A stretch of DNA of 64,000 bases from an uncultured delta proteobacterium (GTDB lineage: Bacteria; Desulfobacterota; Binatia; UBA9968), in assembly GCA_963745035.1 (NCBI GenBank), contig CAVUVW010000021.1, positions 96,001 through 160,000 of the forward strand, in the 5' to 3' direction. Made by a program: the position numbers and the translations under genes. Of the stretch, positions 5,518-63,349 are shown piece after piece (the stretch's first letter is position 1; each line of letters starts with the position of its first letter). A model generated the notes under the pieces. The model was not told the DNA's origin, ran no database searches, and was given only the letters and a program-made list of their open reading frames with translations.

Positions 5518-6981
5518 TTATCGATCCTCGATACTCGGCTTTTTTTTGTGCCATTCGGTCGCCTGCTCGTAGTGATGGGCTAGGCGCAGGATCGTCGGCT
5601 CGTCAAAATATTTGCCGATGATTTGCATGCCAATCGGCATTCCGTCATCGTCGAAGCCGCAGGGCAGGGACAGCGCCGGCAGGCCCGCCAGATTGACCGA
5701 GATCGTGCAGATATCCGACAGATACATCTGCAGCGGATCCGCGATCTTCTCGCCCATTTTAAAGGCGGTCGTGGGCGCGGTCGGCGTAACGATCGCATCG
5801 CATTTTTGAAACGCCTGGTCGAAGTCGCGCTTGATCAGCGCGCGCGCGCGCTGGGCCTTCAAATAATACGCGTCGTAATAGCCCGCGGATAGCGCGTAGG
5901 TGCCGAGCATGATGCGCCGCTTCACCTCGGCGCCGAAACCTTGGTCGCGGCTGATCCGATAGGTTTCGGTCAAGTCGCCGGCGTCGGCGCGATAGCCGTA
6001 GCGCATGCCGTCATAGCGCGCCAGGTTCGAGCTCGCCTCGGCGGTGGCGACGATGTAATAAATCGCGACGGCGTATTCGGTGTGCGGCAACGAGATCTCC
6101 TCGATGACGGCGCCGCTTTTTTCGAGCCGGCCGACGGCCACGTGGACCGCTTGCTCCACGGCGCCGGACATGCCGTCGACGAAGTATTCCTTCGGGATGC
6201 CCACGCGCAGGCCCTTGATGTCAGCGCCGAGGGTTTCCGCGTAGCGCGGCACGGCGCGCCGTGCCGAAGTCGCGTCGACGGGGTCGTGGCCGGCGATCGC
6301 CTCGAGCAAAAGTGCCGTATCGCGCACGTCCTTGGTCATCGGTCCGACCTGATCCATCGAGGAGGCGAAGGCGACGATGCCGTAGCGGCTCACCCGGCCG
6401 TAGGTCGGCTTGAGGCCGACGATGCCGCAAAAAGCCGCGGGCTGGCGAATCGAGCCGCCGGTATCGGTGCCGAGGGCGGCGATGCATTGGTCTGCCGCCA
6501 CCGCGGCCGCCGAGCCGCCCGAGGAGCCGCCGGGAATGCGTTCCAGGTTCCACGGATTGCGCGTCGGAAAGAAAGCGGAGTTTTCCACTGAAGAGCCCAT
6601 GGCGAATTCATCGAGATTGGTCTTGCCGATGATCACCGCGCCGGCCGTTCGGAGCTTTTTGACCGCGGTGGCGTCGAACGGCGGAACAAACTCGCCAAGG
6701 ATTTTCGAAGCGCAGGTGGTGCGCATTCCTTGCGTGAGAAAATTGTCCTTGAGGGCGATGGGAATGCCAAGCAGAGGCGAGGCGCCGTCGCGCGCGCGCA
6801 GGCGCTCGTCGGCGCGGCGCGCGCCATCGAGCGCCGCTTCGCTATCGAGGGTCAAGTAGGCGCGGATGCGATCGTCGTCGGCGATGCGCTCGAAAACGGC
6901 TTCGGTGAGCTCCAATGACGTGATCTCGCCGGCGCGCAGTTTTTGCGCGGCGTCGTGAAGGGTCAGCGCGGCAAGGCTCAT
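5518..6981 (-). CDS. gatA: Asp-tRNA(Asn)/Glu-tRNA(Gln) amidotransferase subunit A
   Basis: Amidase signature [36 protein letters not shown]; lies between gatC and gatB. Confidence 0.98.
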
Positions 6982-7265
6982 TCGAGGATTTTGGGAACCT
7001 TGAAGAATGTGCCGTCCCGATCCGGCGCGTTCGCCAGCAGCGCTTCGGGGTCGGGCCGGTTGATCACCGCGTCCTCGCGCAGCGCAGTGTCCGCCTCGAG
7101 GGCGTGGACGAAGGGCTCGACTCCGGTGGTGTCGAGCCGGTTGAGCTGGTCCATATATTCGAGAATATTGTCCAGTTGCCGGGTGAGCTGCGAGACCTCC
7201 TCGGCGCTAAGACGAAGCCGGGCCAGAGCGGCGACCCGTTCGACTTCTTCGACGGTGATCTTCAC
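6978..7265 (-). CDS. gatC: Asp-tRNA(Asn)/Glu-tRNA(Gln) amidotransferase subunit C
   Basis: [15 protein letters not shown]...LREDAV...[17 protein letters not shown]; overlaps gatA start; GTG start inferred. Confidence 0.95.
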
Positions 7266-7384
7266 GGAGATTTTTCTAACACAAGCCTCGCGCGATGCCA
7301 ATCTGCGCCGGCGCAGCGCCTTTCGGCGGGTCCGCAGTCAATTTATTTGCAGTTGCGCCGGCTTTTCGCTAACAATGACGAGCC

Positions 7385-8097
7385 ATGAGCGGCGCGCAGC
7401 TTTCGCTGGGGGGAGAAGACATCGGGCGGGTGGAGTTTCGCTCGTACGAGGAGGAAAGCTACGCGCGCGGCTATCATTCCATCGCCGGTATCGACGAAGT
7501 CGGACGCGGGCCGCTCGCGGGCCCTGTGGTGGCGGCGGCGGTGATCTTGCCGCGCGGCTACGCCCATCCCGATATCAAAGACTCGAAATTGCTGACGGCG
7601 AAGCAGCGGGAAAGAGCGGCGGGAATGATTCAGGAAAGCGCCGTCCGCTGGGCGGTGGGAGTTGCCGGGGTGAAAGAAATCGACCGTTTGAATATTCTTC
7701 AGGCGAGCCTGCTGGCGATGGTCAAGGCGTTGGCGGCACTGAAATCGACCGTCGATTGCGTGCTCATCGACGGCAACCAAACGATACCGTTAGGGTTGTT
7801 CCGCACCGGCAAGTTTGCCGCCGGCAGATCGCTCTACCAAAAATCGATCATCAGAGGCGACCAGCTTTGTCTTTCCATCGCCGCCGCATCGATCGTCGCG
7901 AAAGTGGCGCGCGATCGGATCATGGCGGAGCTGGACCGGCGGTATCCCGACTACGGTTTCGCCGCGCACAAAGGCTATAGCTGCGCGGCCCACTTCGACG
8001 CGCTCCGGCGGTTCGGTCCCTCGCCGGCGCACCGGCGCAGTTTTCGTCCGGTGCGCGCGTTGTGCGAAGACCCAAAAAGCATCGGCCCTCTGTTTGA

Positions 8098-8101
<4 letters not shown>
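7385..8101 (+). CDS. rnhB: Ribonuclease HII
   Basis: AGIDEVGRGPLAGPVVAAAV, DSK, SIAAASIVAKVARD, HKGY. Confidence 0.97.
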
Positions 8102-9752
<1,651 letters not shown>

Positions 9753-56975: not shown

Positions 56976-58025
56976 CTATTTTTTCTTTTTTCCCGGCACG
57001 TCGCCGCCCCAGAGCTCTTTTAGAAAGCCGCTCTTTTCGAGGTGCTCGGCGAAGCTGTTGTCATAGGTCTCGGCAGGCTTGCGGCGCACGTTGGCGCCGG
57101 CTTGACGCGCGCTTTCGATCGCCTCGGCCACGCGGGACGCTGGGATCGAGAGGCGGCGATTGACCAGTTGGCGCGCGTAGGCATCGTAGGCCGACTGCGC
57201 CGATTCCTGATCTTTCAAGGCGAGCACTCGAGCCACCGATGCTTTGGCTTTCTCGGGATTTTTCTCGACGAAATGAACCGCTTCGGCCATGGCGGCGACA
57301 AACTTCTGGGCGATCGCGGGGCGCTCTTTCAGCACCCTGTCGTTGGTGAAGACGCTGCTGTAGATGGCCGGCAGATTGAGATCGTCGAGTTGGTAGATCA
57401 CGTTGAAGCCGTCGCGCCGGGCGCGGGCGTCGAGCGGCGGCGTGACCATGGTTGCATGGCCCAGTCCGTGCTGGAGAGCATTATAGACTTCCGTTTGTCC
57501 GGCCCCGCCGATGTGCCGGATCGCCAAGTCATCCAAGGTGAAATGAAGCTTTTTCATCAACGTGCGAATCAGCGTGTCGGGCGTGCCGCCGGGCCGGGTC
57601 GCGATAAAAATCTTTCCTTTGAGATCTTCCACACGGCTCAGCTCTTTGCGCGCGATGATCACCCACGGGAGACCGACCAGCGGCGAGGCGATCATCTTGT
57701 TCTCCGCGCCGGCTGCGAGGCTCGGAATGATCGCGTCGGCGGTGCAGTAAAGAAACTGAAGCTCGTTGGACGTGAGCGCCGCCGCCGATACGCCGGCGCC
57801 GCGCACGAGCAGAAACTCGGGCCGGATGCCGTATTTGTCGAACAGGCGATGATCGAGCGCGGTGTAGAGATGAATAAAGCCGCCGCTGATGGCGCAGGCG
57901 GCGACACGGATCGGCACGACCGGGTCGCCGGATTTGGCCAGATAGGGGTTGGCGCGAGCGGTGGCGGGAGGCAATCCCAAAACGACGATGATGAACCAAC
58001 CGATCATTTGGCGCGTCGAAATCAT
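56976..58025 (-). CDS. ABC transporter substrate-binding protein (SsuA/THI5-like)
   Basis: Signal peptide ARA; LFDKYGI, DLKGK..ATRPG. Confidence 0.85.
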   Translation of the reverse strand: MISTRQMIGWFIIVVLGLPPATARANPYLAKSGDPVVPIRVAACAISGGFIHLYTALDHRLFDKYGIRPEFLLVRGAGVSAAALTSNELQFLYCTADAIIPSLAAGAENKMIASPLVGLPWVIIARKELSRVEDLKGKIFIATRPGGTPDTLIRTLMKKLHFTLDDLAIRHIGGAGQTEVYNALQHGLGHATMVTPPLDARARRDGFNVIYQLDDLNLPAIYSSVFTNDRVLKERPAIAQKFVAAMAEAVHFVEKNPEKAKASVARVLALKDQESAQSAYDAYARQLVNRRLSIPASRVAEAIESARQAGANVRRKPAETYDNSFAEHLEKSGFLKELWGGDVPGKKKK

Positions 58026-58133
58026 AAAATCCTATCCGTCTTTGGAGAATACCACTGAAACGAAACTAGCCGGGAGCCGCTTTGGCGCGGCCGCTGATCT
58101 CTTGCCGCCGTGCCCGATGGAGCGCTGGCCGGT

Positions 58134-59117
58134 CTACTTGCCGAGCGTCGCCAATGCTTTTTTATAGAAACGGTCGTCGATGTATTTTTCCGGCTTGGGA
58201 ACCGGCGGCTTCATCAGCCCGGCGATTTCGCGGAGCTCGAGGACGGTGCGGATCCCCTCGGTGTCGATGCGGCTGCGCGGCGTGAGCCCCAAGGTCGGGC
58301 TCAGCGCTTGGCGGTACATCGCTTCGGCGCGCGCCTTGTTGTTCTTGGTCTCGCCGAGCAGGAGCTGGATCGCCTCTTCCTTGTTTTTTCCATCCTGCAG
58401 CCAATCGGTGGCGCGAATCATCGCGCGGCTGAAGCGCACGACCAACTCCTCGTTGGCGTTGGCCCAGTCCCGACGCGTCGCGCCGAGACCGCGCGCGTAG
58501 TGCTTCACGTAGTCCTGGGCCTGGGCGAGGACTTTGAAGCCGCGCTTTTGGATCTCGTCGTCCGGCAGGCTCATCATCGCGCCCGCCGCTTCGCCGCGGC
58601 TCATGGCGTTGGCGCGCGCGGTGGTGTTGCCGAAGGCCTTGAAGGTATAGTCGCGGTTCCACTCCAGTCCGTGCTTTTTCATGATGTAAACGCCGACGAT
58701 CGCATAGCCGGTGGTCGGCGCGTCGACGGCAAAAATTTTGCCTTTGAGATCGGCGTAGTCGTTGATGCCCGATGCGACCACGAGCTTTTGATCGACACCC
58801 TGGCTGCCGCCGAGAAAGATGATGAAGTCGTTTTTCTGCGGATCTTCGCCTTGGCCTTCGGCCCAGGCGATCACGTTATCGGCGTTATTCAGGATCAGAT
58901 CGTAGCGGCCGCTGATGAGATTGCGCAGCAAGGTCGGCGAGTCGGTCACGGTGTTGATCTCGAGCCGCAGGTTTTCTTGTTCGAGGAAGCCTTTCGCTTC
59001 GGCGACGATGATCGCCGCATCGCGATTGAAAAGACCGATCCGGATCGTGTCTTGAGCCATGACTTGAACGGGCAGCAAAGCCAGCGCTAGCGCCCATACC
59101 CCCTTTGTTGTTTTCAT
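58134..59117 (-). CDS. ABC transporter substrate-binding protein (SsuA/THI5-like)
   Basis: MKTTKG signal peptide with GGAGG RBS; AEAKGFLEQENL, DLKGKIFAVDAPTTGYA. Confidence 0.88.
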   Translation of the reverse strand: MKTTKGVWALALALLPVQVMAQDTIRIGLFNRDAAIIVAEAKGFLEQENLRLEINTVTDSPTLLRNLISGRYDLILNNADNVIAWAEGQGEDPQKNDFIIFLGGSQGVDQKLVVASGINDYADLKGKIFAVDAPTTGYAIVGVYIMKKHGLEWNRDYTFKAFGNTTARANAMSRGEAAGAMMSLPDDEIQKRGFKVLAQAQDYVKHYARGLGATRRDWANANEELVVRFSRAMIRATDWLQDGKNKEEAIQLLLGETKNNKARAEAMYRQALSPTLGLTPRSRIDTEGIRTVLELREIAGLMKPPVPKPEKYIDDRFYKKALATLGK

Positions 59118-59230
59118 CGCGCACCTCCGCGCTATCGTGTGGAACATGTCACAGGTGTGAAGGGGGGCGCAAGTGCGAGGAGAGAAAATCACCAGCGGCG
59201 CGCTCCGAGAGCAAATGCAAACCGAGGCGA

Positions 59231-59560
59231 TCAATTCGGTTGCGCCGACTCGTCGCTGCGGGCGGCGCGCTCGGGCGCTTTTTCCGGCGCTGGCGGCACC
59301 GGATCGACGGTCGCCAGCAGCGCCTTGCGCAGCGTGACCGCGGATTTTTGGAGCTCGCCCTTGATGTCTTCGGCGGTGCGGAACGCCGCGTCTAAAATCT
59401 CCTGATCGTGCTGCTCCTTGATATCTGTGAGAATGCGCGTGCGCGCCGCACCGGCGCGCTCCTGCTTGTTGGCGCGCAGGCAGGACACAATGATGGAAAC
59501 GAGAATCCCGCCGGTGACGCCGGCGGAAAAGATCAGCAGGTCGGAAATCCAATCGCCCAT
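59231..59560 (-). CDS. Small single-TM protein with helical/coiled-coil cytoplasmic tail
   Basis: MGDWISDLLIFSAGVTGGILVSIIV, then a charged helix and Pro-rich tail. Confidence 0.65.
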   Translation of the reverse strand: MGDWISDLLIFSAGVTGGILVSIIVSCLRANKQERAGAARTRILTDIKEQHDQEILDAAFRTAEDIKGELQKSAVTLRKALLATVDPVPPAPEKAPERAARSDESAQPN

Positions 59561-59633
59561 GTTCGATTCCGGTGCGCTGCGCTGCGGATCGAGATCGATT
59601 GTATTACCGCGCCGGGGGAGCGCTCTTCGATCA

Positions 59634-60665
59634 TCAAAGCGACAGCTTGTCCCAATCCGAAGTCGTGGCGTCGCGGGCGATGGAGAGGCTGCCGTCCGAG
59701 CCGGCAAACGCCGGATCGGAAACCACCGTTGCGCGCCCGCCGCCCAAATCGGCCAGCGCTTTGGTGATCGCCTCCGGCAATCCGGCTATGAGCGACGTGC
59801 CGCCGGCGAGGATCACATTGTTGCGCACCTTGTCCTGATACTCGGGGTCGACTTTCGCCAACAAGTTCGTCATGGTCTCGCACACCGGCGGCAAAATGCT
59901 TTCGCAGGCGGTGCGCATCTCCTCGGTGATGTCGATTTCCGTCGCCCTTCCCTTGACCGGCACCGTGACCCGCACGCGGTCTTTGGGCTCGCCGACGAAG
60001 CTCTGCTTTTCCTTCCATTCCCGCAGCATGTGTATGGAAAATTGTGCGTCGGGGTGGCGCTCCCGAACCAGTTTCATCAACTGCTCGTCGATCGAGTCGC
60101 CGGCGTTGGGCAGCGTCTTCTGGTCTTCCTCGGTCGGGTAGCGGCCCTGCATGACGCAAAAATCCGCGGTGCCGGCGCCGATGTCGATGACGAGAGCGTG
60201 CAACAGCGCTTCGACACCGTAGGCGACCGCAAAAGGCTCCGAGACCATCATCACGCTGTCGGCGATTCCGTCGATGGTGCTGCGTAAGTTTTGCCGGCTC
60301 ACGCGAAAAGCCTCCGCGGGCACGCCGACGACGGCGCGGACCTTGGCTTTGGCTTTTCCCTTCTGCTTGATGCCGGCGAGCGAGATCAAATGGCGGACGA
60401 GCTCCTGCACCGCCTCATGATCCTTCTCCGATCCTTCTTTCATGATTCCGCGTTCGAGCGGCCGGCGCAAATCCAACATCGGGCGGTTATCCAGCGCGTC
60501 GCGGCCGACGAGCACGGGCTTTTTGACCAGCTTGCGCGCAACCATATCGACCGGCCATCCGACATAGCTATCGATGATGTGGCGTTCGCCGTTGGAAGCC
60601 GAAATCGAGCTGCGCGAGGTGCCGAGGTCGATTCCCACGCAAAGTGTTTCGTTGGTTTCTTCCAT
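59634..60665 (-). CDS. mamK: MamK-like bacterial actin (MreB/MamK family)
   Basis: GIDLGTS, VGWPVD, RRPLERG, VVGVPAE, VSEPFAVAYG, IDIGAGTADFC, EEDQKTL..AG, KE..SFVG, PEYQ...NVILAGG; from memory these match MamK better than MreB. Confidence 0.8.
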   Translation of the reverse strand: MEETNETLCVGIDLGTSRSSISASNGERHIIDSYVGWPVDMVARKLVKKPVLVGRDALDNRPMLDLRRPLERGIMKEGSEKDHEAVQELVRHLISLAGIKQKGKAKAKVRAVVGVPAEAFRVSRQNLRSTIDGIADSVMMVSEPFAVAYGVEALLHALVIDIGAGTADFCVMQGRYPTEEDQKTLPNAGDSIDEQLMKLVRERHPDAQFSIHMLREWKEKQSFVGEPKDRVRVTVPVKGRATEIDITEEMRTACESILPPVCETMTNLLAKVDPEYQDKVRNNVILAGGTSLIAGLPEAITKALADLGGGRATVVSDPAFAGSDGSLSIARDATTSDWDKLSL

Positions 60666-60668
60666 GAA

Positions 60669-61667
60669 TCAACTGCCTTTCGTGCCGGCGGCTTGGAGGC
60701 CGTTCGCATAGCGGCGAATGCCTCTCTCCAGAGCCACCGCGATATTTTCCCGATAATTTTCCTTTGTCAACAACGCGGCCTCGCGCTCGTTGGAGAGGCA
60801 GGCGATCTCGACCAAGATCGCGGGCATCTGGGTGCCGATCAATACGGCAAACGGCGCGGTTTTCACGCCGCGGTTCTCCAGCTCGGGATTTTCCGCGCGC
60901 AGCGTGCGGAACAGTTGGCTTTGGATCGTATGGGCGAGGGCGCGAGATTCGTCGCGGCGCGCATCGACGTAGATCTTTTCCAGAATTTTTTTATAGTCGG
61001 AGAGCGCATAGCGCGAGTCCTTGTTTTCCCGCTTGGCCAATTGGAGGATGGCCGGATCGTCGGTGGGGCCGACGTAATAGGTCTCCAATGCGCGAATCGT
61101 ATGCGGCTCCATCCAGTTCACATGAATGGACACGAACAAGTCGGCCTTGTTCTCGTTGGCGAAGGCTACCCGCTGGTCGAGCCCCAGCGACCGGTCGGTG
61201 TCGCGGGTCAACAGCACTTGGAACGGCGCGTCTTTCAAAAGACGGCGCAAGCGCAGGGCGACGTCCAGGGTGATTTCTTTTTCGGTCATCCCGGCCTCGG
61301 CCGTAGCGCCTGGCTCGCCGCCGTGGCCGGCATCGATCACGATGGTTTGGACGGAAAGCGGCAGCGCCGACTGGTCGATGGGACGGGGCGGTGGAAGCGG
61401 CTCTGATCGCAGCGGCGGATCGATATTCGGCGCGGGATCCCGTTGAGCCGGCGCGGCGCTCAGCGCTGGCGTGCCGCTCTGCTGCGCTGCCGGCAGGGTC
61501 ATCATCACGGCGACGATCGCCGCGGCTGCCAAACCGCCCCATCGCCACACCCGGCGCTCGCCTGGCTGGCGTTTGCGCCGCGGGACTTTCACGTTGCGCA
61601 GCACAGCGACGTTGTCCTGCACGACGCCGCGGAGCAGCTCGGCCTTGGTTTCGTCGATATTGGCCAT
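60669..61667 (-). CDS. N-acetylmuramoyl-L-alanine amidase (Amidase_3) with N-terminal membrane anchor
   Basis: IVIDAGHGG, EKEITLD, LTRDTD, RVAFAN..KADLFVSIHVN, PAILVEIA.LSN. Confidence 0.93.
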   Translation of the reverse strand: MANIDETKAELLRGVVQDNVAVLRNVKVPRRKRQPGERRVWRWGGLAAAAIVAVMMTLPAAQQSGTPALSAAPAQRDPAPNIDPPLRSEPLPPPRPIDQSALPLSVQTIVIDAGHGGEPGATAEAGMTEKEITLDVALRLRRLLKDAPFQVLLTRDTDRSLGLDQRVAFANENKADLFVSIHVNWMEPHTIRALETYYVGPTDDPAILQLAKRENKDSRYALSDYKKILEKIYVDARRDESRALAHTIQSQLFRTLRAENPELENRGVKTAPFAVLIGTQMPAILVEIACLSNEREAALLTKENYRENIAVALERGIRRYANGLQAAGTKGS

Positions 61668-61832
61668 GGGAACGCTTTTCGGAACCGCTACAAATAACCT
61701 GCAAAACTGCCCGATTCAGCCTTGCGACAAAGAATAGCACGAGGCAAAAAGTAACGCGATGTTTTTTCGCGCCCCGCGGCCGGAGGCTCGGAACCGCGTC
61801 GCGGCCGGCGGGCTATCGCCGGGCATAAGCAA

Positions 61833-61847
61833 GAAATCGCCGTGCCA
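61833..61847 (-). promoter_or_regulatory. Possible sigma54 promoter upstream of the amidase-actin operon
   Basis: TGGCAC-GGCGA-TTTC (the -12 element deviates from consensus). Confidence 0.3.
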
Positions 61848-61978
61848 TTTTCGCCGCGTAAATGGGTGCAATTCCAAATTTTGTTGATAAGGTCGGAGAT
61901 CAGCGGCTCCCTCGCGCAAAAGCGCGGGTTTGGAGCCCCGCAGAATGCGGGGAAGATTGCTGTTGCGAGGCTGTGAAA

Positions 61979-63349
61979 CTACTTGGCAAACTTGGGCAGG
62001 AAATCTTCCAGGCGGATCTTCTTCATCACTTCTTCCGGGACTCTGAGCTCCGGTGCGAAGCCGGCGAGGGGCTTGGTCGCGTCCAGTCCCATTTTGGCGT
62101 TGACCCCGCCGGGGCCAGCGGAGGGATCGAGCTCGCTACCCTGCGCGTTGGCGATCACCACCAGGCCGCGATCGGCCTGGAAGCGGTTCGAGACCGCCCA
62201 AAGCACCTGCTCTTCATCGTACACGTCGATATCCTCGTCGACGACAACGACGTGCTTGAGCAGCATGTCGGAGGCGAAGGCGGCGCAGATGGCGTTCTTT
62301 GCCTGGCCCGGCGTGCGCTTCGCGATCGAAATATAGGCGTGGAAGCGGCAGTTGCCGGATACCGGCATGCAGACGCTTTTCACGGTCGGCACGCTGAGGC
62401 GCACCGCTTTGATCAACGCCGCCTCGCGCGGCACGGCGCCCATCAATTTATGCTCGGTGTAGCCGGCATGGACGTCCTGGAAGATATAGTTCTTGCGGTG
62501 GGTGATCGCGGTCACTTCGATGACTTGCCGTTCGTCTTTGGAAACCGCGTGGCCGGTGAATTCGCCGAACGGGCCTTCCTCGCGGCGCACGTTGGGAAGA
62601 ATCTTTCCCTCGATCACCATTTCGGCGTCGGCGGGAACCAGAATGGGCATTGTCTTGGCTTTCACCACGCGCAGCGCTTCGCCCATCATGCCGCCGATCA
62701 CCGCGTATTCGTCCTCCGTGGACGGCGTGAAGGCTTGCGCCCCGAGAGAAAAGAGCGGATGCACGCCGACGACGACGGCGATCGGCAACGGCTCGTTGCG
62801 CCGCTCCATCTTGTTGTGCAGGGTCCAGAGATGCCGTCCGACGGCCATGAAAATGCGCAACTCGCGCTTGCGCGCCATCATCAGCCGGTTGTAGCTCGTG
62901 TTTCTGACGCCGGTGTCCGGGTCGGCGGCGACTACGATGCCCGCGGTGATGTAGGGCGCGGCGTTGACATCGTAGTGGGTGAGGAGCGGCACTTTGCCGA
63001 GATCGACGTCGTCGGCGCTCTGGACGACTTCGTGCACCGGCGCATCGTTGACTTCGACCGGCGCGATCGGCTTGCCCTGACGATCGCTAAACGTCTTCGC
63101 GAGATTTTCGGGTTTGCACTCCAGCGCCAGCGCCATCAGCTTGCGGCTCGCCTGGGCGTTAATGACCACCGGTGCCTCGCTGCCTTCGACGTTTTCGCAA
63201 AACAGCAAGGGAAAACGTTTTGCCTTTTCCAATTGTGTGAGCAGCGCGGTGATTTCATAGCGCGGGCCGATCGGCTTTGTTACGCGCGCTACTTCGTCGG
63301 GATGTTTGGACTCCAGCTCGGCGATGAAACTGCGCAGGTCTTTGGGCAT
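61979..63349 (-). CDS. UbiD family (prFMN-dependent) decarboxylase
   Basis: DLRSFI..L, YITAG, RN.SYNR, EGPFGEFTG, VVVVDEDID, VLWAVSNR, LDPS, KMGLDATKP. Confidence 0.93.
   Translation of the reverse strand: MPKDLRSFIAELESKHPDEVARVTKPIGPRYEITALLTQLEKAKRFPLLFCENVEGSEAPVVINAQASRKLMALALECKPENLAKTFSDRQGKPIAPVEVNDAPVHEVVQSADDVDLGKVPLLTHYDVNAAPYITAGIVVAADPDTGVRNTSYNRLMMARKRELRIFMAVGRHLWTLHNKMERRNEPLPIAVVVGVHPLFSLGAQAFTPSTEDEYAVIGGMMGEALRVVKAKTMPILVPADAEMVIEGKILPNVRREEGPFGEFTGHAVSKDERQVIEVTAITHRKNYIFQDVHAGYTEHKLMGAVPREAALIKAVRLSVPTVKSVCMPVSGNCRFHAYISIAKRTPGQAKNAICAAFASDMLLKHVVVVDEDIDVYDEEQVLWAVSNRFQADRGLVVIANAQGSELDPSAGPGGVNAKMGLDATKPLAGFAPELRVPEEVMKKIRLEDFLPKFAK

Follow-up and report, generated by a model that had tools for sequence, protein, structure and literature searches.

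A window of 64,000 nucleotides (the whole stretch of DNA analyzed here, positions 96001-160000 of contig C21 in the host assembly G000) carries three co-oriented genes on its minus strand, the first for an Amidase_3 protein, the second for an actin and the third for a small protein of 109 aa. The reading we favor, with a probability of roughly 55%, is that this non-magnetosome actin holds a periplasmic amidase through the amidase's own N-terminal tail, and that the locus encodes a two-part trans-envelope module together with a lineage-specific third gene. The observations on which it builds are gene order, conservation, protein families and the absence of the magnetosome genes that were searched; contact between the tail and the actin cleft is predicted, and polymerization, membrane topology, autoinhibition and positioning are what we infer. 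The features of the module are as follows.

60669..61667, minus strand: amidase open reading frame (ORF), 332 aa; bitopic N-acetylmuramoyl-L-alanine amidase (Pfam Amidase_3, 166 bits; AlphaFold2 model)
61593..61667, minus strand: amidase residues 1-25, predicted actin-binding helix (conserved motif, complex model)
61500..61559, minus strand: amidase residues 37-56, predicted transmembrane helix (model helix after a basic stretch)
60714..61343, minus strand: amidase residues 109-318, Amidase_3 catalytic domain (Pfam and conserved H115, E129, H182 and E287)
60957..61052, minus strand: amidase residues 206-237, AmiA/B/C-type insert, candidate autoinhibitory element (3ne8 alignment; invariant E214 and N215)
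59634..60665, minus strand: actin ORF, 343 aa; MamK-family actin-like ATPase of a distinct amidase-linked clade
59231..59560, minus strand: small protein ORF, 109 aa; bitopic, with an N-terminal transmembrane segment and a conserved cytoplasmic helix; lineage-specific accessory

The ORF listing places the actin ATG (60665) 3 nt beyond the amidase stop codon (60669-60671) and the ATG of the small gene (59560) 73 nt beyond the actin stop (59634), which is the three-gene layout described in an earlier, sequence-only reading of this DNA. The small-gene ORF itself spans 59231-59707 on the minus strand, and the 109-aa protein starts at the internal ATG at 59560.

The amidase-actin pair is a real unit, linked far beyond chance. 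A scan of species-representative genomes returned 192 stretches with relatives; the counts that follow cover the 80 loci that were kept, in which the actin is 57-88% identical to that of the window. They carry the labels of metagenome-assembled genomes (MAGs) of Binatia or "delta proteobacterium", Methylomirabilota/Rokubacteria, Acidobacteriota (Thermoanaerobaculia, Sulfomarinibacteraceae) and Entotheonellaceae. By tblastn, the amidase gene lies directly upstream of the actin gene in 78 loci, and the remaining two (L021 and L069) start at the actin and have no upstream DNA. The gap between both genes mostly ranges from a few-base overlap to about 15 nt. ORF clusters within 5 kb contain the actin in 80 loci, the amidase in 79, a UbiD-like protein in 24, an NMT1-like protein in 19 and the small protein in 18. 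Thus, when the three-gene order proposed at the outset was checked in relatives, the pair held (78/80) but the small gene did not (only 18/80). More distant members of the family, G294 and G026, have the pair in both cases inspected. Their actins are 51-54% identical to that of the window and 65-67% identical to P0125, and the Amidase_3 gene directly upstream encodes the same tail motif (see below) but with Tyr at the ninth position; P0125 represents another group that is linked to an amidase. Two loci show irregular copies. In L075 (9233-10946) there is a stop in the amidase frame and the actin match is split in two overlapping pieces, so that the locus looks decayed, and in L079 (10001-10998) the actin match shifts frame at about 10835, either by frameshift or by assembly error.

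Judged by its family scores, the actin is MamK-like and falls outside the clade that holds MamK of the solved-structure type. It reached 377.2 bits against NCBIfam MamK (NF040964), which is below the cut-off of 400, compared to 70.5 bits (PRK13927, cut-off 293) and 58.7 bits (TIGR00904, cut-off 366) against MreB and 213.8 bits against BeeR (NF053558, cut-off 530), in a match beginning at residue 8. Among solved structures, MamK 5ljw aligned over residues 6-341 with 252 bits, BeeR 8r2n with 149 bits and MreB with 36 bits. Both comparisons bear out the initial impression, drawn from motifs, that the protein resembles MamK and not MreB. Across 60 actin sequences there is no variation at D13, G15, D161, G163-T166 and G288, and conservation of E143 and G289 is 90% or more; we take these residues to belong to the phosphate-1, phosphate-2 and adenosine motifs and to include the catalytic acidic residue.

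An MreB-type paralogue involved in rod shape would agree with the names of these proteins in public records ("rod shape-determining protein MreB") and with Pfam, in which MreB_Mbl/Actin families match the protein and MreB_Mbl is the best of them at 81 bits. Such an identity is refuted by the family scores (NCBIfam MreB 70 bits vs. a cut-off of 293, MamK 377) and by the tree described below. The host genome has one MamK-like gene and, separately, one MreB-like gene located on contig C14, whose product sits on a branch of length 3.7 outside all MamK-like rows. On the NCBIfam scores, the public MreB labels are contradicted.

Relatives of this actin are numerous. Of the database candidates scored, 5598 out of 8000 matched it at E≤0.001, and a search of 1.84 billion cluster representatives returned 1081 matches at E≤0.001 and 182 at E≤1e-30. 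Full-length representatives (67), labelled by NCBIfam scores and one PDB search, had MamK scores running continuously from 209 to 508, with 18 of them at or above the cut-off of 400 and five fitting BeeR best. A quick IQ-TREE analysis of 94 rows (the window actin, 25 loci, the 67 representatives and the host's own MreB as outgroup) collected all amidase-linked rows plus P0121 and P0169 in one clade of 28 rows, with a Shimodaira-Hasegawa-like approximate likelihood ratio test (SH-aLRT) support of 99, a stem of 0.40 and short branches within. The phylogeny thus sets the actin apart from MreB, in an amidase-linked clade of its own. P0146, which scores 463 bits to a PDB MamK (5jyg), is found with P0206 and the FtsZ fusion P0188 in a separate 13-row clade (support 99). 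Next to the amidase-linked clade branches P0125 (support 88), followed by the BeeR-like rows (support 81), and both forks are weak. The backbone as a whole has little resolution, with forks of 81-88 SH-aLRT, and its root is set only by the one long MreB branch.

It could be argued that the gene is a displaced or remnant mamK, from a magnetotactic organism or a magnetosome-bearing ancestor. MamK is its best family, the 377 bits fall just under 400, and the representatives form a continuum of scores in which 18 of 67 reach the cut-off. The host assembly has 7.43 Mb in 28 contigs and is 92.6% complete and 5.8% contaminated. Misbinning of contig C21 (450 kb, guanine-plus-cytosine fraction 0.591) was considered and rejected, because its tetranucleotide composition matches that of the genome (correlation of 0.998 with the genome mean). 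The host RecA has its nearest named relatives, at 89-92% identity, among sequences labelled Candidatus Binatia or Deltaproteobacteria. In this genome MamI had no match (cut-off 80 bits), and MamP (37 bits, cut-off 300), MamQ (83 bits, cut-off 250) and MamO (89 bits, cut-off 800) all remained below their cut-offs, with the same generic matches also occurring in non-magnetotactic control genomes. The genome-wide search for mam genes that the sequence-only reading had called for thus found no Mam family above cut-off among MamI, MamP, MamQ and MamO; MamA, MamB, MamE, MamL and MamM were not searched. Nearer to the module, the window ORFs and Pfam show no mreC, mreD or mam gene among the neighbours, in agreement with what had been noted at first sight; it is flanked (56976-59165 and 61979-63349) by a tandem pair of NMT1/THI5-like binding proteins and by a decarboxylase of the UbiD family, and a transporter-like ORF is a further neighbour. 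Considering also that the clade is apart from PDB-type MamK and that the partner gene is kept in MAGs labelled with four phyla, descent from a magnetosome gene cluster is close to refuted.

The partner of the actin is a membrane-bound enzyme. An AlphaFold2 model built with 60 sequences (mean predicted local distance difference test score, pLDDT, 83.5; predicted template modelling score 0.70) consists of a helix at residues 2-23, a second helix at 37-56, a low-confidence stretch at about 57-100 and a compact domain at 108-330. Basic residues precede helix 37-56 in the amidase sequences, and by the positive-inside rule this helix would be an N-in signal-anchor that leaves the enzyme domain in the periplasm. 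The linker of about 50 aa that follows, modelled with low confidence, is not conserved among the 60 sequences. Pfam Amidase_3 (PF01520) covers residues 109-318 with 166.3 bits (threshold 27, E 8.7e-49), and H115, E129, H182 and E287, presumably the zinc ligands and catalytic residues, are invariant in the 60 sequences.

Within the Amidase_3 family, the catalytic domain is probably of the AmiA/B/C type and subject to autoinhibition. By sequence it matches Bartonella AmiB best (3ne8, 98.6 bits); the top Foldseek matches are AmiA 8c2o, AmiC 4bin and 3ne8, and the structural matches also include 7tj4 (LytH) and 7rag (CwlD). NCBIfam equivalog scores are far under their cut-offs. The 3ne8 sequence aligns across residues 206-237, with "ENK" facing "ENK", whereas CwlD 7rag aligns in two stretches that leave 206-237 out. 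In AmiB and AmiC, the insert helix blocks the active site until a LytM-type activator shifts it, and a Glu in the insert touches the zinc. Pfam finds no AMIN domain on the locus amidase. A second amidase of the host genome, 454 aa long and encoded on contig C6, does have an AMIN domain, and the seven M23/LytM genes of the genome are all located away from the locus.

What sets the locus amidase apart is its N-terminus. The tail follows the motif [KRQ]xx[LIMVF][LIMVF][RQKHE]xx[LIMVAT]xxN, which a pattern search finds in 72 amidases; in an alignment of 60 amidases, N19 never varies and K8 is kept in at least 90%. A hidden Markov model (HMM) of the tail matches 73 of 78 amidase ORFs, and the five exceptions are cut by contig ends (L014, L023, L030 and L078) or broken (L075), so every complete amidase among the related loci carries the N-terminal helix. 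Within the host genome the motif is unique to the locus amidase (E 6.3e-11; next match E 0.87), and among the related loci the tail HMM found no other carrier, SPOR and PilZ neighbours included, save shifted frames of the broken L075. A filament serving several clients that share the tail motif is thus unsupported, since the HMM has no other carrier in the genome or in the loci.

Modelling of the actin with amidase residues 1-40, a comparison suggested by the sequence-only reading, predicts that the amidase helix binds the actin cleft directly. Scores in three runs were 0.86, 0.84 and 0.86, as against 0.01 at most in three controls. The pass mark of the test is reached by 116 of 157 solved complexes and by 2 of 215 mismatched pairs, counts that hold only roughly here as our own alignments were used. 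The runs share at least 83% of contacts, with a partner pLDDT of at least 66. In the predicted interface, tail residues 4-25 face actin residues 121-128, 139-141, 149-155, 174-176 and 329-341, among which R121, R128, V141, Y149, L154 and G174 are invariant in the clade. Its position relative to the catalytic E143 and the DxGxGT motif would place this interface in the hydrophobic cleft formed by subdomains IA and IIA, into which ParR and many partners of actin insert a helix.

The module is accessory and patchy, yet stable within the genus. In a class-level sample the gene occurs in 40 of 401 genomes and in 2 of 20 families, namely in 18 of 21 genomes of the host's own genus, 34 of 63 of its own family (G000 excluded), 5 of 55 of family f4 and none of 282 from the 18 other families. 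In a phylum-level sample of 301 genomes, 14 have some MamK-like gene at E≤1e-60, and the amidase-linked kind is known only in G000, G294 and G026. All these figures come from samples to which MAG incompleteness applies. The genome of L020 is flagged as unpublished, as are G637 and G647, two of the positives from the host's own family.

The actin tree does not follow taxon labels, which fits transfer between lineages. Both this and the patchy cross-phylum distribution would be expected of a mobile element, a phage lysis cassette or a ParM/Alp-like plasmid partition system with the amidase as an endolysin-like passenger, and membrane-anchored amidases do occur in phages. We nevertheless consider such an origin very unlikely. 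The local synteny is chromosomal, because the UbiD and NMT1 neighbours are kept in relatives (24 and 19 loci, respectively), and the gene is near-universal in its own genus (18/21). A viral contig collection holds only two distant relatives, at 36-42% identity. Furthermore, the amidase has a probably regulatory insert of the cell-division type that CwlV-type and endolysin-type enzymes do not have, and Pfam and ORF surveys, in which integrase and ParR families were not searched by name, revealed no phage or partition genes.

Taken together, these data can be accommodated in the following mechanism. The actin, as a member of the MamK/BeeR branch, would polymerize in the cytoplasm. The amidase, encoded just upstream and presumably co-translated, would cross the inner membrane once, and its first 25 or so residues would form an amphipathic helix docking in the hydrophobic IA/IIA cleft of the actin. 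Filaments could in this way cluster the amidase in the inner membrane or set its location there, while the flexible linker of about 50 residues would let the periplasmic catalytic domain reach the sacculus. There, the insert would probably hold the enzyme inactive until it is freed by a periplasmic activator or a substrate state, and the enzyme would then strip peptides from peptidoglycan where the filament decides, or in clusters set by the filament. A cytoskeletal address would take the place of the usual periplasmic AMIN targeting domain. The original suggestion of a non-magnetosome MamK-family actin tied to an amidase is therefore upheld as far as the conserved pair, the distinct clade and the lack of any searched Mam family above cut-off are concerned, while its second part, that the module positions wall remodelling, we can only infer.

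There are signs, though weak, that the module is expressed. Small shares of the stretch are present in six RNA-library runs, and in the four examined, which derive from three studies, the amidase and the actin are each covered in part by contigs of 92-99% identity. A single contig crosses the amidase-actin junction (X18 record 23, 60556-60706) and another crosses the junction between actin and small gene (X16 record 9, 59490-59683).

Several considerations weigh against the mechanism outlined above. Support for the module is wholly computational. The complex score is a measure of model confidence, and since solved actin and ParM structures with helices in the cleft are known, passing the test may partly reflect memory; besides, the model holds one actin subunit and says nothing on access to the cleft within a filament. 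The RNA contigs cannot show strand, level or whether there is one transcript, and the libraries may contain DNA, while a promoter scan gave 0 sites and a terminator scan 4 vs. 4.4 expected, which is chance level. The presence of the module in only 40 of 401 genomes and 2 of 20 families marks it as accessory and not as a core wall machine. Finally, in some clades two arginines in the basic stretch precede hydrophobic residues, and Ala and Gly abound in the hydrophobic segment, so the amidase N-terminus could be a long cleavable export signal.

This last point leads to the main live alternative, in which the tail would be part of a cleaved export signal and the actin would act on the precursor. 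More generally, the actin could affect export or activity of the amidase instead of its position, as a chaperone or targeting factor of a signal that is later cleaved or as an on-off switch operating by clustering, with filament geometry being secondary. The twin arginines and hydrophobic residues occur in tails of the Rokubacteria and Sulfomarinibacteraceae types, and E. coli AmiA and AmiC are substrates of the twin-arginine translocation pathway. Judging from its position, the cleft in which the tail is predicted to lie is one that serves subunit contacts in actins as well, which would suit binding to a monomer. On the other hand, the twin arginine is not family-wide (L003, L009 and L020 do not have it), the helix is not followed by any consistent AxA site, conservation lies in helix 4-25 and not in the basic stretch, and residues 37-56 are modelled as a regular helix of 20 residues. 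On balance, we regard both the general form of this explanation and its version with a cleaved signal as unlikely, though to be taken seriously, and retain the tethering of a membrane-anchored amidase as the preferred reading.

The kind of actin described here is not new, since MamK-related actins outside magnetotactic bacteria are known from BeeR, described as a MamK-related, three-stranded tubular actin of non-magnetotactic Verrucomicrobiota with a disordered N-terminal extension of 30-50 residues as hallmark (PMC11929497). In the tree, the group formed by the amidase-linked clade and P0125 has the BeeR-like rows as its next sister (support 81, weak). However, the BeeR family score is 214 against a cut-off of 530, and the N-terminal extension is absent from the window actin because its actin fold starts at residue 8. 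The word "amidase" occurs neither in the BeeR paper (PMC11929497) nor in a second actin paper, supplements aside.

MamK, which with its adaptors MamJ/MamY positions magnetosome chains, is the closest characterized sequence family, and there too a cytoplasmic filament holds membrane-embedded cargo via a cytoplasmic segment. It differs in that the actin of the window has a sub-cut-off score, belongs to a separate clade and is found in a genome where the searched magnetosome genes are below cut-off; the cargo here would be a periplasmic enzyme with a built-in helix, whereas that of MamK is an organelle with an acidic adaptor.

Among wall enzymes, MreBH and LytE of Bacillus subtilis offer a functional analogy, as a cytoplasmic actin-like filament sets the site of an extracytoplasmic peptidoglycan hydrolase. 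LytE, though, is a secreted endopeptidase without a transmembrane tether, while the amidase is anchored and its contact with the actin predicted to be direct. In the E. coli divisome, FtsA-FtsN offers the short cytoplasmic N-tail of a bitopic protein binding to an actin-fold protein, and FtsEX-EnvC-AmiA/B a cytoplasmic ATPase coupled to autoinhibited amidases of the AmiA/B type. A likeness to the divisome can also be seen in the SPOR proteins found beside the pair in four Acidobacteriota loci, which would read the amidase product. Different from both cases, the locus has a MamK-like actin, the amidase itself is the tethered protein, and there is no LytM or FtsEX gene.

ParM-ParR and actin share the predicted amphipathic helix in the IA/IIA cleft (here with contacts at 139-155, 174-176 and 329-341), but the locus has no DNA-segregation parts and the helix is the N-terminus of a membrane enzyme. 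LytH-ActH of Staphylococcus aureus and CwlD-GerS (structures 7tj4 and 7rag) are likewise membrane-held Amidase_3 enzymes controlled by a partner; they are without the 206-237 insert, and their partners work outside the cytoplasm and none is an actin.

No published description was found, supplements aside, of an actin that serves an amidase specifically and is bound through an element of the enzyme itself. Among the papers listed, none combined MamK with an amidase. A literature search for MamK together with Rokubacteria, Binatia, Binatota, Methylomirabilota or Thermoanaerobaculia gave only a nomenclature paper. It is conceivable, if somewhat less than an even bet, that we are dealing with an undescribed cytoskeletal system, in which a dedicated actin filament grips a periplasmic autolysin via a helix of about 20 residues seated in the target-binding cleft of the actin and the inside of the cell dictates wall cutting without a periplasmic targeting domain.

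How cytoplasmic filaments control wall enzymes that work outside the membrane is a long-standing question, and the known links (MreB-hydrolases, FtsEX-EnvC-amidase) are indirect or multi-part. Here, two genes and a short peptide whose contact residues can be named would make up the whole link, which is therefore directly testable. Many proteins annotated as "MreB" also gain a functional context from the pair, which extends the MamK/BeeR group by a third branch whose partner is distinct and gives a handle on the cell biology of uncultured soil lineages labelled Binatia, Rokubacteria and Thermoanaerobaculia. If the proposed mechanism is true, a clade located beside BeeR and apart from magnetosome MamK would suggest that tethering of membrane proteins is the older job and magnetosome positioning a specialization.

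The small protein is a real conserved gene. It has 48 homologues at E≤0.001, 101-146 aa long, and the named taxa are all Binatia. Their alignment shows a near-invariant N-terminal hydrophobic segment (D3, W4, L9, F11, A13, G14, G17, G18 and L20, of which D3, W4, F11, G14, G17 and G18 are strictly invariant), a conserved helix at about residues 48-79 and a variable C-terminal tail. No Pfam or NCBIfam family, YhcB/ZapG included, matched it at E up to 0.01, and the best score of an ESM Atlas search was 0.83, which is under the useful range. The resemblance to YhcB/ZapG pointed out earlier therefore concerns the layout, an N-terminal transmembrane segment followed by a cytoplasmic helix, and does not extend to a match with the family profile. 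The accompanying proposal that this protein is the membrane tether is not supported, as it is present in 18 of 80 loci only and confined to Binatia, and the amidase has its own transmembrane segment and a predicted actin-binding helix. Because of this narrow range and the amidase's own anchor, the small protein is better seen as a lineage-specific membrane accessory, restricted to Binatia, than as a general tether.

Beyond the pair, the gene after the actin differs by clade, as judged from a sample of downstream genes analyzed with Pfam. Four Acidobacteriota loci have a gene for a bitopic SPOR-domain protein directly after the actin, and genes of possible regulatory interest lie near the pair in others.

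L020:2524-3723, L080:11037-12161, L070:3683-5062 and L072:4134-5366: SPOR-protein genes, 374-460 aa, with a hydrophobic segment in the middle and a SPOR domain at the C-terminus
L055:11163-11873 and L046:7439-8593: PilZ-domain proteins downstream of the pair, in Sulfomarinibacteraceae-type loci
L093:2726-4066 and 6637-9477: GGDEF cyclase and hybrid histidine kinase flanking the pair in G294

SPOR domains bind amidase-processed glycan, and in the Acidobacteriota loci the neighbouring SPOR proteins would recognize the glycan that the amidase has freed of peptides. The PilZ neighbours and the GGDEF gene beside the pair in G294 hint at an input from cyclic diguanylate. In L018 a phosphodiester glycosidase (NAGPA) gene follows the actin, and unrelated enzymes are found in other sampled loci.

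The searches also returned MamK-like actins in other contexts. One group consists of long proteins of 523-1232 aa (P0136, P0137, P0139, P0140, P0145, P0147-P0150, P0152, P0156, P0157, P0170 and P0176) in which the C-terminal 330 residues are actin (MamK 374-421 bits) and for which only actin-fold Pfam matches were reported; in the tree they make up a separate clade of 14 rows (support 99). P0188, of 768 aa, is a full FtsZ (TIGR00065, 351 bits, residues 4-315) fused to a MamK domain (446 bits, residues 434-765), and groups with PDB-type MamK. P0001 is a 455-aa relative, 87% identical over 74% of the query and located on a 2.3-kb contig, which may be a fused or mis-started actin. In one family of the phylum sample (6 of 8 genomes; L095, G131:C3:56000-66500) a 332-aa actin comes after proteins of 117 and 663 aa without Pfam match. 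In L096 (G278) about 600 nt separate two MamK-like genes, and in L098 (G008) the MamK-like actin comes after an FeoB gene.

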